Source: a virus
Lineage: Duplodnaviria > Caudoviricetes
Reading direction: 5' to 3' (one strand)
IMG/VR virus record: IMGVR_UViG_3300037634_002601
Span: 1-39,403 of that record
Length of the DNA: 39,403 nucleotides
The notes below the pieces were generated by a model. It made no database searches and had not been told where the DNA came from. It was given only the letters and a program-made list of their open reading frames with translations. This document shows, piece after piece, positions 2,785-39,403 of this stretch. The stretch's first letter is position 1. Every line of letters begins with the position of its first letter. A program made the translations under genes and the position numbers.

Positions 2785-3744
2785 TTAATTTATCGACATT
2801 GCTTGATTTTGTAGTGAATTTAATATAACAAATTCTTTATATTCTGAATAATTTTTAATATTAAGACAAAACGGTAATGGGTTTATTTTTTTACCGTTAT
2901 AAATAACCTCATAATGCAAATGAGGGCCAGTCGAATCACCAGTATTACCTACAAACCCTAGAACCTCACCCCTTTTAATCCTTTGGTTTAATTTAACCAC
3001 CATTTTAGACATGTGTGCATATAATGTCTTATAACCATATCCATGGTCTACGGTAACATTTTTACCATAGCCATTTATTTTATGTTCTATTTTAATTACT
3101 TTCCCATTCCCAGTAGAATATATTGGTACACCAACATTTGTTGGGAAATCAATACCAGTGTGCATTTTAATGACCTTAAAAATTGGGTGTTTTCTATATC
3201 CAAATCCAGAGATTTTTTTATTCTTTAAATCAAAGTTTTTTATTGGTAATATTGATGGTATTGACGATAACATAAATTCCTTAGTATTAAGTTCGTTGAT
3301 TATCAAATCTTGTGATTCAGCAACAACATTAATATTATGTTTTATTTTTAATAATTTTTTCTTTATTAATGTTAAAATTTTGGGGTTTGATTTTCCACTT
3401 AAGACTTCGTTTAATTGATTGTTCGGACCAAACCATAAATAATTTTTTTTAGGTTCAATACCTAACATAGTAGTATAAATGGTATTGTCCCTTTCAATTA
3501 GATTATCAATAACAGAGTTAACTAAGGTCATCTTATTATTGATATTTTGGTAGTTTTTCCTAAGTATTATTAAATCCTTAACATCATTAGTGTTTTTAAC
3601 TCTAAGGGTTATTATAGATACAATAGAAGTATATCCAATAATAAAGGCTAGAGTTATAAAAACACTAAGTGGGGTAAATTTAATTAAATACCCCACTTCA
3701 TCATATTTTAGAGTATCTTCATTAAAGATGTATGCTTTATCCAT
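2785..3744 (-). CDS. M23 (LytM) family metallopeptidase with N-terminal TM helix and coiled coil
   Basis: HTGIDF (HxxxD) and GPHLHYEV (HxH) Zn motifs, GYG..V.VDHG.GY.TLYAHM; N-terminal hydrophobic helix; architecture like Bacteroidota cellular M23 peptidases. Confidence 0.92.
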   Translation of the reverse strand: MDKAYIFNEDTLKYDEVGYLIKFTPLSVFITLAFIIGYTSIVSIITLRVKNTNDVKDLIILRKNYQNINNKMTLVNSVIDNLIERDNTIYTTMLGIEPKKNYLWFGPNNQLNEVLSGKSNPKILTLIKKKLLKIKHNINVVAESQDLIINELNTKEFMLSSIPSILPIKNFDLKNKKISGFGYRKHPIFKVIKMHTGIDFPTNVGVPIYSTGNGKVIKIEHKINGYGKNVTVDHGYGYKTLYAHMSKMVVKLNQRIKRGEVLGFVGNTGDSTGPHLHYEVIYNGKKINPLPFCLNIKNYSEYKEFVILNSLQNQAMSIN

Positions 3745-28560: not shown

Positions 28561-29517
28561 ATGTCAAGGATGATATTACAAATATTAAAACGAGTGTTGG
28601 GTGAATGTTACAACCACAGCGAAGAAACTGGTCAAACAGAATGGGGTTGCCCAGCTTGCGCTGAAGACAATGGATTATCTTATGGTAATACAAATGGTAA
28701 ACATAAACTTTCGTTAAATTATAAAAAGAATATTTTTAGATGTTGGGTTTGTTGTTTTGAAAATGACATGCATGGTAAGGTACCTAAATTAATAAAAAGG
28801 TATGGGAACAATAAAATTCTTAAAGAATACTTACTATTACAACCAGATGATTATGATTCTTCTACAGATTCGGTAAAGAGTGAAGTTAAACTACCAGAAG
28901 GTTTTAAAAAGTTATGTCTATCAAATAAACAACATTTTAAGTTTGATTCTGCTTATGATTATATCAAGAAAAGAGGGATAACTGATGAAATGATTGATTA
29001 TTATAATATTGGGTACAGTATTATTGGTAAGTATCATGATAGGATTATATTACCATCTTATGATGAAATTGGTGACCTTAATTATTTTGTTGCGAGAGCG
29101 TGGAATAAATGGATGAAGCCCAAATATCTAAACCCTATTGCTGAAAAACAATCATTAATCTTTAATGAAAACAAAATCAATTGGGATTGTACAATTTATT
29201 TGGTGGAGGGTGTTTTTGACCATATTGTTGTACCCAACTCCATACCATTATTAGGTAAGATTTTACCAGAAAATCTAAGATTAGTTTTATATACAAAAGC
29301 TAAGGGAGATATTATTATACTTTTAGATGGTGAGGCATACGATGATGCATTAAAAATATATCGGGCATTAAATTCACATAGGCTCTATAATAGAATTAAG
29401 ATATGTGTTCCAAATTATAAGGAAGACCCATCTTCTGTTTTTGAAAAATTTGGTTACAAGGGTATTGTTAAACTGCTTAATAAATGTGGTCAAATACCAG
29501 AAAGTAAATTATATTGA
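28561..29517 (+). CDS. dnaG: DnaG-type DNA primase
   Basis: Zn ribbon CPAC...CWVC, YIKKRGI, RIILP, YFVAR, KYLNP, Toprim LVEGVFD and LLDGEA. Confidence 0.9.
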   Translation: MSRMILQILKRVLGECYNHSEETGQTEWGCPACAEDNGLSYGNTNGKHKLSLNYKKNIFRCWVCCFENDMHGKVPKLIKRYGNNKILKEYLLLQPDDYDSSTDSVKSEVKLPEGFKKLCLSNKQHFKFDSAYDYIKKRGITDEMIDYYNIGYSIIGKYHDRIILPSYDEIGDLNYFVARAWNKWMKPKYLNPIAEKQSLIFNENKINWDCTIYLVEGVFDHIVVPNSIPLLGKILPENLRLVLYTKAKGDIIILLDGEAYDDALKIYRALNSHRLYNRIKICVPNYKEDPSSVFEKFGYKGIVKLLNKCGQIPESKLY

Positions 29518-29664
29518 TTCATCATCATCTTCACTTACTTCACCATCATCTTCACTTATCTCATCATCATCTTCAGTTAATTGATATTCATCATTGTTGG
29601 CACTACCAACAACATAGTTATACCCTAAATCCTCCCTCAATAACTTTAGTATGAAATCTTTCAT
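29509..29664 (-). CDS. Small acidic protein (51 aa) not in ORF track
   Basis: Translated by hand: MKDFILKLLREDLGYNYVVGSANNDEYQLTEDDDEISEDDGEVSEDDDESI*; fills the primase-nuclease gap; late-promoter motif 11 nt upstream. Confidence 0.75.
   Translation of the reverse strand: MKDFILKLLREDLGYNYVVGSANNDEYQLTEDDDEISEDDGEVSEDDDESI
29512..29574 (-). repeat. 21-bp coding tandem repeat x3 (EDDDEIS / EDDGEVS / EDDDESI)
   Basis: GAAGATGATGATGAGATAAGT, GAAGATGATGGTGAAGTAAGT, GAAGATGATGATGAATCAATA on minus strand. Confidence 0.85.
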
Positions 29665-35774: not shown

Positions 35775-36803
35775 ATGAAAAAAATATTATTATATTTGGT
35801 TTTACTTATTGCGCTTACAATGGCATCGGTTGTTGCTTATGTATCTGTTAATGGTTTATTAAAGGTTTTTTCTGGTGCTGGAATCGTTGGGTTAATCTTT
35901 TTTACAACCATAGAAGCCGCTAAAATAATTGCTACTTCGGCAATCCACACATACGGAAAAAAGATTGGTTGGGTTTACAATAGTTTCCTAACCATAACGG
36001 TATTAATTACTATGGTCATAACATCAATTGGTGTTTATGGCTTTTTATCTTCCACTTATAAGGATAGTTTTGCTAAATTTGAAAATGCGGAATTACAAAT
36101 AGTTTTGTTTGAGAAAAAGAGGTTGGGTTATCAAGAACAATTAGACTTATTAAATATTGAAAAACAATCTATAAGTGAAAATATAAACGAATTAAGCAAT
36201 GGCTTATCTAATAATGTTATACAATATAAAGATAAAGAAACTGGTCAAATAATTACAACAACTTCTTCATCAACCAGAAGAGCATTGGAAAGACAATTAA
36301 ATAATGCAATAGAAAGGCAGACAGTTATAAATGGGAAAACAGAAACACTAAGTAACACCATATTTGATATTGATAATAAAATACTCGAAACCAAACTAAC
36401 CAATGAAAGCGCATCCGAACTTGGTCCATTAAAATATTTATCTGATGTAACAGGTAAACCAATGGATGAGGTGATGAAGTGGTTAATATTCTTATTATTA
36501 ATAATTGGTGACCCCATGGCAGTATTAATGGTTATTATCTTTAATAAGATTGTTAAGGATGATGAAAAGATTCCAACACAATTACCTCTCCCAAAAAAAA
36601 ACCTTGAAAGTGAAATTAATCATGATGTTGATATAGAAGATTCACCCAAAGAAGCCGTAATTAAAAAAACAAATAAAGAACCTCTTGTTAAACCCTCAAT
36701 TATAAAAAAAAGAACCAATGACACAATCGATAGGATAGGTTCAAATAAAGAAATTAGAGATAGTGATTCCAACACTATTTATTTTAAAAGAAGAAAAAAA
36801 TGA
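35775..36803 (+). CDS. Multi-pass membrane protein (3 N-terminal TM, coiled coil, C-terminal TM); DUF4407-like architecture, possible lysis role
   Basis: Hydrophobic segments in first ~92 aa and at WLIFLLLIIGDPMAVLMVII; ELGPLKYLS motif. Confidence 0.7.
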   Translation: MKKILLYLVLLIALTMASVVAYVSVNGLLKVFSGAGIVGLIFFTTIEAAKIIATSAIHTYGKKIGWVYNSFLTITVLITMVITSIGVYGFLSSTYKDSFAKFENAELQIVLFEKKRLGYQEQLDLLNIEKQSISENINELSNGLSNNVIQYKDKETGQIITTTSSSTRRALERQLNNAIERQTVINGKTETLSNTIFDIDNKILETKLTNESASELGPLKYLSDVTGKPMDEVMKWLIFLLLIIGDPMAVLMVIIFNKIVKDDEKIPTQLPLPKKNLESEINHDVDIEDSPKEAVIKKTNKEPLVKPSIIKKRTNDTIDRIGSNKEIRDSDSNTIYFKRRKK

Positions 36804-37414
36804 TTGATGACAAATCATATATGTTGGATGATAGTAAATTTACAAAAAAGATTACACAAAAAACAAGAATTGTTATAGGTAACACATTTTCAACCAAAAT
36901 GAAACATTACATTGGGTGGAATAATAGATATAATGGCAAGCATGATAAATGTGCTATGTTCACCATACGATTAAATGGTGACATATACCAACACTTTTCT
37001 CCGATATATTTTTCAAATTTTATGTGTGATTTAAACATAAATGAAAACACCATAACAGTGGTTTTGGAAAACGAAGGTTGGCTAATGAGAGATTTAAATT
37101 ATAAAAATAAGTTTGTTAACTATGTTTATGATATTTATAATAGAGATGATTTAGTTTTTGAAAAAAAATGGAGGAATTATGAATACTGGGCACCATATAC
37201 TATTAAACAAGAAAAATCATTACAGGTATTAATTAATAAATTATGTAATGATTTTAATATTCCAAAGATAGTCATAGGACACAACACAAATCTTGATGAT
37301 GCAACTAAATTTAATGGTGTATTATATAGGAGTAATTTTGAAAAACATTATACTGATGTTAGTCCAGCATGGAATTTTGGTTTATTTAAAAAAATGGTTG
37401 AACAAAATAATTAA
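36800..37414 (+). CDS. N-acetylmuramoyl-L-alanine amidase (Amidase_2)-like protein with atypical first Zn site
   Basis: FTIRLNGDIYQ, ITVVLENEGW, YTIKQEKSL..LI..LC..FNIP, VIGH, TDVSP; usual IVIHHT reads IVIGNT. Confidence 0.7.
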   Translation: MIDDKSYMLDDSKFTKKITQKTRIVIGNTFSTKMKHYIGWNNRYNGKHDKCAMFTIRLNGDIYQHFSPIYFSNFMCDLNINENTITVVLENEGWLMRDLNYKNKFVNYVYDIYNRDDLVFEKKWRNYEYWAPYTIKQEKSLQVLINKLCNDFNIPKIVIGHNTNLDDATKFNGVLYRSNFEKHYTDVSPAWNFGLFKKMVEQNN

Positions 37415-37906: not shown

Positions 37907-38278
37907 ATGAATAATTTAGATATTAAAAATATATTGTTAATTGTATTGGTTATTACTTGTGTTGGATTAACACTTGGTATAATATTTAAATCAAATGACA
38001 CTATCAATTATAATGAAGACGTTATTAGAGCACTTAAGGAAGAAAATGCGAGATTAGTTAGTAAAAATGATAGTATTAAGGTGAATAACAATAATTTATC
38101 ATACGAGATTGATTCTTTGGGACAAATAATAGATGATATGAATGAAGATTTAAATGATACAAAAGAAAAAATTAATAAATTAAAAATTAAGAAAGATGAA
38201 ATATCTAATCATGTTGACACTATTGGTAGTGATGAACTTACAAGGGCATTCACAGAATTTCTCAATAGAAAAGAATAA
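37907..38278 (+). CDS. i-spanin-like protein (N-terminal TM + coiled coil)
   Basis: ILLIVLVITCVGLTLGIIF followed by heptad coiled coil; downstream of amidase-like gene; overlapped by next gene. Confidence 0.55.
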   Translation: MNNLDIKNILLIVLVITCVGLTLGIIFKSNDTINYNEDVIRALKEENARLVSKNDSIKVNNNNLSYEIDSLGQIIDDMNEDLNDTKEKINKLKIKKDEISNHVDTIGSDELTRAFTEFLNRKE

Positions 38279-38660
38279 TGTACAAATATATATTGACAAG
38301 GGTGATACACTTGTTTTTATGAGATATGAAAGTGCTAAGATTCTTTTAAAGGAAGTTTTAAAATGTGAATATACTGATAGTCTTTTACATACATACGAAG
38401 AACGTGATTCAATAAATAATAATATTATTATGTTTCAGAAAGAAACCATTGTTAAGTTATCAAAAAAGGGTGAAAATTATGAAGAAATAATTGCAAACTT
38501 AAATTATGTTTCTACCAATAAGGACCAGGAAATAAGCCTTAAGGATAAGACAATAAAAAAACAAATAAGGAAAATAAAAAGACAAAAAACACTAACCACT
38601 GTTGGATTCACATTGGCTGGGATTGCAACAGTCTTGGCGGCTATATTGGCAATATTATGA
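38196..38660 (+). CDS. Spanin-like partner: signal peptide, coiled coil, C-terminal TM
   Basis: MKYLIMLTLLVVMNLQGHS-Q signal without lipobox Cys; C-terminal TVGFTLAGIATVLAAILAIL; 83-nt out-of-frame overlap with upstream gene. Confidence 0.55.
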   Translation: MKYLIMLTLLVVMNLQGHSQNFSIEKNNVQIYIDKGDTLVFMRYESAKILLKEVLKCEYTDSLLHTYEERDSINNNIIMFQKETIVKLSKKGENYEEIIANLNYVSTNKDQEISLKDKTIKKQIRKIKRQKTLTTVGFTLAGIATVLAAILAIL

Positions 38661-39403
38661 AACACTATATAAAACAAAGGCTTAGAGAATCTCTTTTAAA
38701 TGAAGATGATGATATTAAACAATCAATTATATCTTTATTAAAATCTGGAGATGAAGATAATATTGAATTAGCATATACAGCTGGTGAAGGACAAGGTATT
38801 AATGTTGATGAATTGGTTAAATCAATATATGGTGAGTTATTATTAAATAAAGCCGAAGGCAAAACAATAAAAGATAGGTTAATAAATCTTACAAATTTGA
38901 AGGAGTTGTATTTACGTAATAACAAACTAACCAGCTTACCAAAAGGTATAGAGAATTTAACCAATTTGAATGAGTTGGGTTTATCTGACAACAAACTAAC
39001 CAGCTTAAAAGGTATAGAGAAGTTAACAAATTTGAAGAGGTTGGATTTAAATAATAACGAACTAACCAGCTTAAAAGGTATTGGTAATTTAACCAATTTG
39101 CAGTGGTTGCATTTACAAGCTAACGAACTAACCAGCTTAGAAGGTATAGGTAATTTAACCAATTTGGTGTGGTTGGTTTTATCTTTTAACAAACTAACCA
39201 GCTTAGAAGGCATTGGTAAGTTAACCAATTTGAAGGCGTTGTATTTACGTAATAACGAACTAACCAGCTTAAAAGGTATAGAGAAGTTAACCAATTTGAA
39301 GGCGTTGTATTTACGTAATAACAAACTAACCAGCTTAAAAGGTATAGAGAAGTTAACCAATTTGAAGGAGTTGGATTTATCTGACAACAAACTAACCAGC
39401 TTA
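38657..39403 (+). CDS. Leucine-rich repeat protein (SDS22/internalin-like 22-aa LRR), 3'-truncated; not in ORF track
   Basis: ATG38657 (ATGA overlap), 249 codons open to window end: MKHYIKQRLRESLLNEDDD...INL TNLKELYLRNNKLTSLPKGIENL TNLNELGLSDNKLTSLKGIEKL TNLKRLDLNNNELTSLKGIGNL etc. Confidence 0.92.
   Translation, partial: MKHYIKQRLRESLLNEDDDIKQSIISLLKSGDEDNIELAYTAGEGQGINVDELVKSIYGELLLNKAEGKTIKDRLINLTNLKELYLRNNKLTSLPKGIENLTNLNELGLSDNKLTSLKGIEKLTNLKRLDLNNNELTSLKGIGNLTNLQWLHLQANELTSLEGIGNLTNLVWLVLSFNKLTSLEGIGKLTNLKALYLRNNELTSLKGIEKLTNLKALYLRNNKLTSLKGIEKLTNLKELDLSDNKLTSL
38891..39403 (+). repeat. Coding tandem array of 66-bp units (first 69 bp, last truncated), 8 units
   Basis: Units start at 38891, 38960, 39026, 39092, 39158, 39224, 39290, 39356; invariant AACTAACCAGCTTA in all eight. 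Confidence 0.95.

Follow-up and report, generated by a model that had tools for sequence, protein, structure and literature searches.

Eukaryotic non-self receptors offer known examples of repeat arrays in which a frozen scaffold is combined with a fast-changing binding face. The lamprey VLR is an LRR solenoid with a concave binding face and a library of donor cassettes, and the variable x positions of the LxxLxLxxN motif line the concave face of LRRs in general. In the Podospora nwd / HET-E fungal NLRs, the accessible text of one study describes near-identical repeats that are exchanged within and between family members, polymorphic repeat numbers and diversifying selection on a few binding-face positions (PMC4986451). 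In Ectocarpus LRR-ROCO genes, where each repeat is one exon and a GTPase is present, the available part of the report describes shuffled LRR modules, gene birth and death, and diversifying selection on the LRR domain (PMC3341825). On the viral side, the portions of the T4 literature available to us report that internal proteins are packaged via propeptides of 10-19 residues and then injected (PMC9026906), that Ip1-3 each block a different GmrSD (PMC12373910) and that head proteases cleave after Glu (PMC5694885).

Here we analysed a stretch of 39,403 nt of phage DNA, referred to as the window, which ends inside an LRR array of the same frozen-scaffold, fast-face regime. By analogy, the phage family to which this array belongs works like the fungal NLR and Ectocarpus ROCO repeats and is a member of neither. 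It shares the near-identical repeats, the exchange within and between members and the repeat-number polymorphism of the former, and the module shuffling and gene birth and death of the latter; the diversifying selection described in both is likely here as well. In contrast, the repeats here are LRRs, which the accessible text of PMC4986451 reports as not found in fungal NLRs, and the phage genes carry a leader and have neither a NOD (NACHT/NB-ARC) nor an effector domain. Unlike the Ectocarpus genes, they have no introns and vary on a scale finer than the whole unit. They share a solenoid of 22-23-residue units and a concave binding face with Leptospira LRR proteins, internalins, SHOC2 and SDS22, while lacking a secretion signal and an anchor, and they differ from the lamprey VLR in that no donor-cassette library accompanies them in the sequences scanned.

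The LRR gene of the window (P0001, 249 aa, 38657..39403, + strand; LRR_4, E = 1e-33) is truncated by the window end. It begins with a 16-codon leader, MKxYIKxxLRESLLxE (38657..38704, +), which also occurs on unrelated proteins of the lineage and is a candidate capsid-targeting propeptide, followed by a helical head or N-cap domain (aa 17-77; 38705..38887, +) without a significant Pfam family. Complete relatives end with a short helical C-cap, and complete alleles consist of leader, head, LRR and cap and nothing else. The stretch at 38710..38818 (+) is also present in a paralog with a different upstream gene and is a possible mis-join point. The upstream flank gene (38196..38660, +) overlaps the LRR start by ATGA; it found no family match, its pS across relatives is 0.01-0.08, and we call it spanin-like because of its hydrophobic ends and its place after the amidase (36800..37414, +; Amidase_2, E = 8e-8) of a putative lysis block. 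Overall, the window is part of a myovirus genome and encodes baseplate proteins, ribonucleotide reductase, SbcCD, a sigma factor and the amidase.

The array is real and beyond chance. A prior reading of the sequence alone (the sequence-only reading) had reported eight units with an identical 14-nt core, and we found the core AACTAACCAGCTTA in 8/8 units, all on the + strand and all inside the ORF at 38657-39403, starting at 38925, 38994, 39060, 39126, 39192, 39258, 39324 and 39390; there is no copy outside this ORF in the whole window, and the final 14 bases of the window are the last copy. The units lie at 38888..38956 (unit 1, KE-Y-RN), 38957..39022 (unit 2, NE-G-SD), 39023..39088 (unit 3, KR-D-NN), 39089..39154 (unit 4, QW-H-QA), 39155..39220 (unit 5, VW-V-SF), 39221..39286 (unit 6, KA-Y-RN), 39287..39352 (unit 7, KA-Y-RN) and 39353..39403 (unit 8, partial, KE-D-SD), all on the + strand, and their x residues agree with those listed in the sequence-only reading. 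Unit 1 has 23 aa owing to an extra Pro and the remaining units have 22 aa. Two further details of that reading were also reproduced: units 6 and 7 differ at 1 of 66 nt, and unit 8 is a combination of codons present in units 1, 3 and 2. The Leu codons TTG, TTG, TTA, CTA and TTA are, as it had stated, each invariant in 8/8 units; this is not codon bias because TTG (0.08) and CTA (0.11) are both rare genome-wide. Variation is located in x1-x5 and in a sixth position after the Asn, a K/E toggle, and falls mostly on codon positions 1-2. Even the variable codons of the window have a largely fixed third base, with the modal base shared by 18/21 position-residue types (null 13.0 ± 1.4, P = 0.0006), and in the whole family third bases likewise stay the same where the residues differ (P < 1e-4). 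A 241-aa antisense ORF across the array was taken as a shadow of the repeat.

We modeled the L012 allele (mean pLDDT 91, ~55 for residues 1-20). The tandem LxxLxLxxNxL units are predicted to fold as a curved LRR solenoid of the SDS22/internalin type, and x2-x3 are placed on strands, in agreement with the concave-face placing of the x positions. The best fold matches were Leptospira LRRs, internalins, SHOC2 and SDS22, while all NCBIfam scores were far below the cut-off. The head domain is rare, with 10 of 1.84 billion representatives matching at E <= 0.001. Weak look-alikes of the head without the leader are found on tandem LRR arrays in two marine bacteria, the marine bacterium AO1-C (L058:7372-12013) and a Saprospiraceae MAG (L059:10007-12318). 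A complete 368-kb phage with a T4-type portal, G001 (L046-L055), contains 23 or more LRR genes that are old and diverged; many of them have a helical head resembling this one, and the leader pattern matches none.

Searching with the first 80 residues yielded 6 viral and 22 metagenome loci, with some contigs occurring in both sets; L011 and L033 were excluded as weak matches without an LRR gene. A scan of viral contigs for the exact core gave two loci, a paralog in L005 and a single match in a 2005-aa ORF of L004 that we took as chance. In the lineage, the LRR gene occupies at least seven sites: A follows the spanin-like gene, B a sigma-factor block and D the capsid gene, C precedes the terminase, E and F lie to either side of a nucleotidyltransferase, and G is a further site. 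The copies thus adjoin lysis, terminase and capsid genes. At site A alone, the genes differ among the window (at least 8 units), L012 (7), L015 (7), L021/L022 (6), L023 and L024 (153 aa), L028 (partial) and P0007. No LRR gene is present there in L001-L003, which are syntenic but distant phages. Site G carries a gene in L018 but just a bare leader stub in L015, and site B of L031 has a 40-aa stub; the LRR gene is gained and lost at its sites. PADLOC gave no match, Atlas and cultured-phage matches were to generic LRR clusters and generic LRRs only, and we found no open-access paper on the family, although proteins of this type could be listed in the gene tables of papers on huge phages; the accessible text on Goslar concerns different LRR-bearing proteins.

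The flanks of site A are more conserved than the sequence around them. Among relatives, 300-bp bins next to the site have 97-99% identity against 79-93% further upstream, and both flank genes (window 38196-38660; L012:9824-10093) reach 99-100% identity between lineages whose similarity elsewhere is 80-90%. Such near-identical flanks fit cassette exchange via flanking homology. The downstream flank gene itself bears the leader, whereas its counterpart in L001-L003 does not. L012 and the window are 99.9% identical over 9.1 kb upstream (~10 substitutions) and then 81-85% identical from codon 51.

For the analysis of selection, 20 genes minus two near-duplicates gave 87 units, 85 of them distinct; L023, L024 and a small number of degenerate units were not captured by the unit pattern. 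The sequence-only reading had called for a per-codon comparison among units, and the outcome is divided. At x1-x5, pN/pS is 2.7 in the window and 4.0 in the 85 distinct units, values that are pairwise and non-independent, while the framework is frozen (pN 0.03). Minimum-step tests with pooled synonymous sites gave an omega of 4.0 for the window (P = 0.01; 21 nonsynonymous against 3 synonymous steps over 6.9 silent sites), 2.5 for 70 units (P = 0.003) and 1.5 for all 85 units (P = 0.07). With the synonymous sites of the x codons only, the test was non-significant in the window (omega 1.7, P = 0.30) and in all 85 units (omega 1.08, P = 0.47). The framework pS between the window and seven other LRR genes is 0.00-0.11, whereas five relatives of 80-90% identity have a pS of 0.39-0.45 in sbcC and 0.53-0.58 in sigma; the repeats consequently differ much less at silent sites than the divergence of the genomes would predict. 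As a control, the 23 LRR genes of G001, of which 200 kb around the LRR matches was analysed, have a saturated framework pS of 0.64-1.0. The frozen framework is therefore special to this lineage, and the idea that all phage LRR genes look like this was discarded.

The reading of the array as a repeat-shuffling, diversifying binder held in part; it had not noticed the common N-terminal leader or the spread of the family over several sites. Binding-face codons vary on a homogenised framework, arrays at the same site differ, paralogs are mosaics and the unit number varies; whole-unit shuffling alone, however, is insufficient, because 79/87 nine-codon blocks occur only once and linkage between x codons is almost absent (mutual information among x1-x5, z 0.2-2.9, against 18 for S13-L14). 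Paralogs have exact patches of 40-70 nt in common, such as 52-59 nt between the L005 paralog and both the window and L012, and 70 nt between the window and the site-B gene of L013. From the unique blocks, the unlinked x codons and these patches, exchange appears to act below the unit scale as well as between genes. At the same time, near-identical contigs often keep their array, which counts against very fast change: one of the 14 substitutions between L027 and L025 falls in the LRR gene (in an x2 codon), and L021/L022 and L020/L019 have none there.

All alleles, including those with polymorphic unit number and with exchange between family members, come from short-read assemblies, in which repeats can collapse or mix. 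The order of the units was examined in Logan contigs of one sample (X2/X3), which may be the source of the window; contigs matching 39005-39093, 39064-39216 and 39064-39256 have 0 differences, and the order of units 3-6 therefore does not stem solely from the window assembly. Units 7-8 are bridged by none of the contig pieces found. Runs X1-X3 contain a further contig, of comparable depth, that has 38656-38739 with the upstream sequence of site B; an X3 contig with such an upstream continues through 38818, and the unitigs break at 38739. Also present in X1-X3 are an upstream that by eye is of the site-C type and junctions that lead into other paralogs at the C-terminal end. The 70 nt common to the window and the site-B gene of L013 likewise suggest a site-B origin of the array. 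It is close to an even call, leaning slightly to the negative, whether the window array is a site-B array mis-joined to site A, and the contrast between the window and L012 is weakened accordingly. The end of the contig within the core had been regarded as a sign of population variation; several paralogs and near-identical tandem units explain the break equally well, so the end is not usable as such a sign. Independent hints of polymorphism come from X1, whose contigs differ from L012 at codon 33 though the site-A flanks match, and from X2 and X3, where the first unit of L012 is followed by two different second units in one sample. Units 1-2 of L012 have no contig cover in X1, a hole that proves nothing.

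The runs that contain window sequence are mainly marine metagenomes; those with small shares (X8-X24), sponge metagenomes among them, do not bear on the habitat and do not point to a eukaryotic target. Related loci other than the window (L020, L032) encode a T4-type terminase, portal, S77 prohead protease and gp23 capsid, and one related locus is on a contig of 262,683 bp. The lineage is one of large uncultured marine T4-type phages. The best cultured matches of the capsid are weak (31-38%), to a Microcystis phage and Flavobacterium phages; together with a SprB repeat and the bacterial relatives of the head domain, they suggest Bacteroidota as the host.

The leader pattern has 21 distinct matches in 26 lineage sequences, six of them on non-LRR proteins, and no match in 12 loci of other phages. 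Its peptide sequence is conserved although its DNA varies at synonymous sites, and looser variants occur on a PAP2 gene and others. The capsid protein contains S-L-L-x-E near residue 60, and the leader likewise ends in L-x-E. The resemblance to a T4 capsid-targeting signal makes packaging and injection plausible. As far as the accessible texts describe them, T4 Ip1-3 similarly have a short common N-terminal peptide on unrelated small proteins and a Glu end (PMC9026906, PMC12373910, PMC5694885), in a phage with T4-type portal, capsid and protease and with variable gene content at fixed loci, and gp53/gp54 of SPN3US have a common 15-residue start of similar make-up. Judged from its genes, the family has the sequence features of T4 internal proteins. 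The difference is that the T4 Ips, as described there, are unrelated folds directed at one GmrSD enzyme each, while the phage LRR proteins are one scaffold diversified codon by codon. Tandem runs of unrelated genes with the common leader are present at L014:599-4444, L016:1470-3774 and L017:202-5339, with genes for a PAP2 phosphatase, a kinase-like protein (by eye), a nucleotidyltransferase and LRRs; one run directly follows the capsid gene.

From these data, we give about even weight to a multi-site family of small phage LRR proteins in which the units are homogenised by recombination, the binding face is under selection and the leader directs loading into the head. Its parts differ in strength. 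It is quite probable that conversion or unequal crossing-over, in which the conserved flanks would serve as homology arms, acts between units, between paralogs and between co-infecting relatives, homogenising the scaffold and recombining the x codons, and it is likely that point mutations in x codons would be retained by diversifying selection. A little short of even is our estimate that the leader would direct the protein to the prohead, where the S77 protease would cleave after L-x-E, and that the mature protein would be ejected with the DNA. By analogy with T4 Ip1-3, the targets might be polymorphic host proteins, most likely defence proteins, a suggestion that we regard as tentative and on the unlikely side. 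The entire chain, a head-packed repertoire of recombination-generated LRR binders injected against polymorphic host defences and exchanged as cassettes between lineages, is doubtful as a whole; if true, it would represent an antibody-like counter-immune library in a virus. Arrays on proteins with a T4-like packaging tag suggest that viruses could maintain a repertoire of binders without a retroelement, and the family supplies candidates for injected anti-defence proteins as well as a natural LRR library.

The same diversification could also serve a protein that acts in the cytoplasm once it is expressed. It might be a decoy or inhibitor of LRR proteins or defence proteins of the host, or take part in superinfection exclusion, and its leader would only aid translation or recombination. 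The leaderless relatives with a similar head in AO1-C and the Saprospiraceae MAG and the 23 genes of G001 are consistent with such action, and the stubs that retain the leader at empty sites with a role in recombination; the conservation of the leader as a peptide despite synonymous changes, its capsid-like L-x-E end and the location of LRR copies in late gene blocks speak against it, and we consider it unlikely. Distinctly less probable is that the arrays are young tandem duplications under relaxed constraint, with neutral drift at exposed positions, slippage or conversion elsewhere and no adaptive role. An omega of ~1-2 in the x-only tests and the loss of copies or their reduction to stubs would be expected from this, but drift predicts equal silent change, against the excess of nonsynonymous steps in the window, and it does not account for third bases that are fixed across different residues. 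The view that most allele differences, including the window array at site A, are assembly chimeras of paralogs draws on the shared 38710-38818 stretch and the unitig break; chimeras cannot, however, produce 79 distinct blocks, units 3-6 lie on single contigs, and five independent contigs close site A with the same two flank genes around different LRR genes, which leaves this view very improbable.

The pattern of variation also invites the idea of a targeted mutator, a DGR or some other, that copies an A-rich template into the x codons, since changes fall on codon positions 1-2 with third bases fixed as G or T, and the blocks are mostly unique with hardly linked x codons. Fixed third bases, in fact, mimic adenine mutagenesis. 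Silent adenines stay, however: L6 is TTA in 81/85 units, and CTG, CTC and CTT never occur at L11. Arrays are also stable between near-identical contigs, RVT_1 was found in 0/5 records (the one complete record being a distant phage), the 14 loci scanned showed no RT motif, and 22 sequences contained no template outside the genes. We therefore rejected a DGR on the invariant silent adenines (TTA, CTA), the RT search having covered the scanned records and loci and no complete genome of the lineage, and give a targeted mutator hardly any credence. Silent cassettes, which the sequence-only reading had proposed to look for, did not appear in the incomplete genome: the framework motif is confined to ORFs in 22/22 sequences scanned, and assembly of the lamprey VLR type was discarded for want of silent donors in the same set. 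Recombination combined with diversifying selection on the face is the account that we consider likely.

Several other features were observed in the window and the related loci. In the window, an M23 peptidase gene (2785-3744, -) is on the opposite strand among the baseplate genes, and a 21-nt tandem repeat of 3.1 copies (29517-29582) is located between the primase and exonuclease genes. On a contig of the lineage, a PAS histidine kinase and a response regulator (L005:485-2157) are just upstream of the LRR paralog and a nucleotidyltransferase. The prohead protease at L020:17395-19248 contains an intein (PF14890), and the portal match of G002 is split inside a 1063-aa frame, which is probably due to an intein as well.
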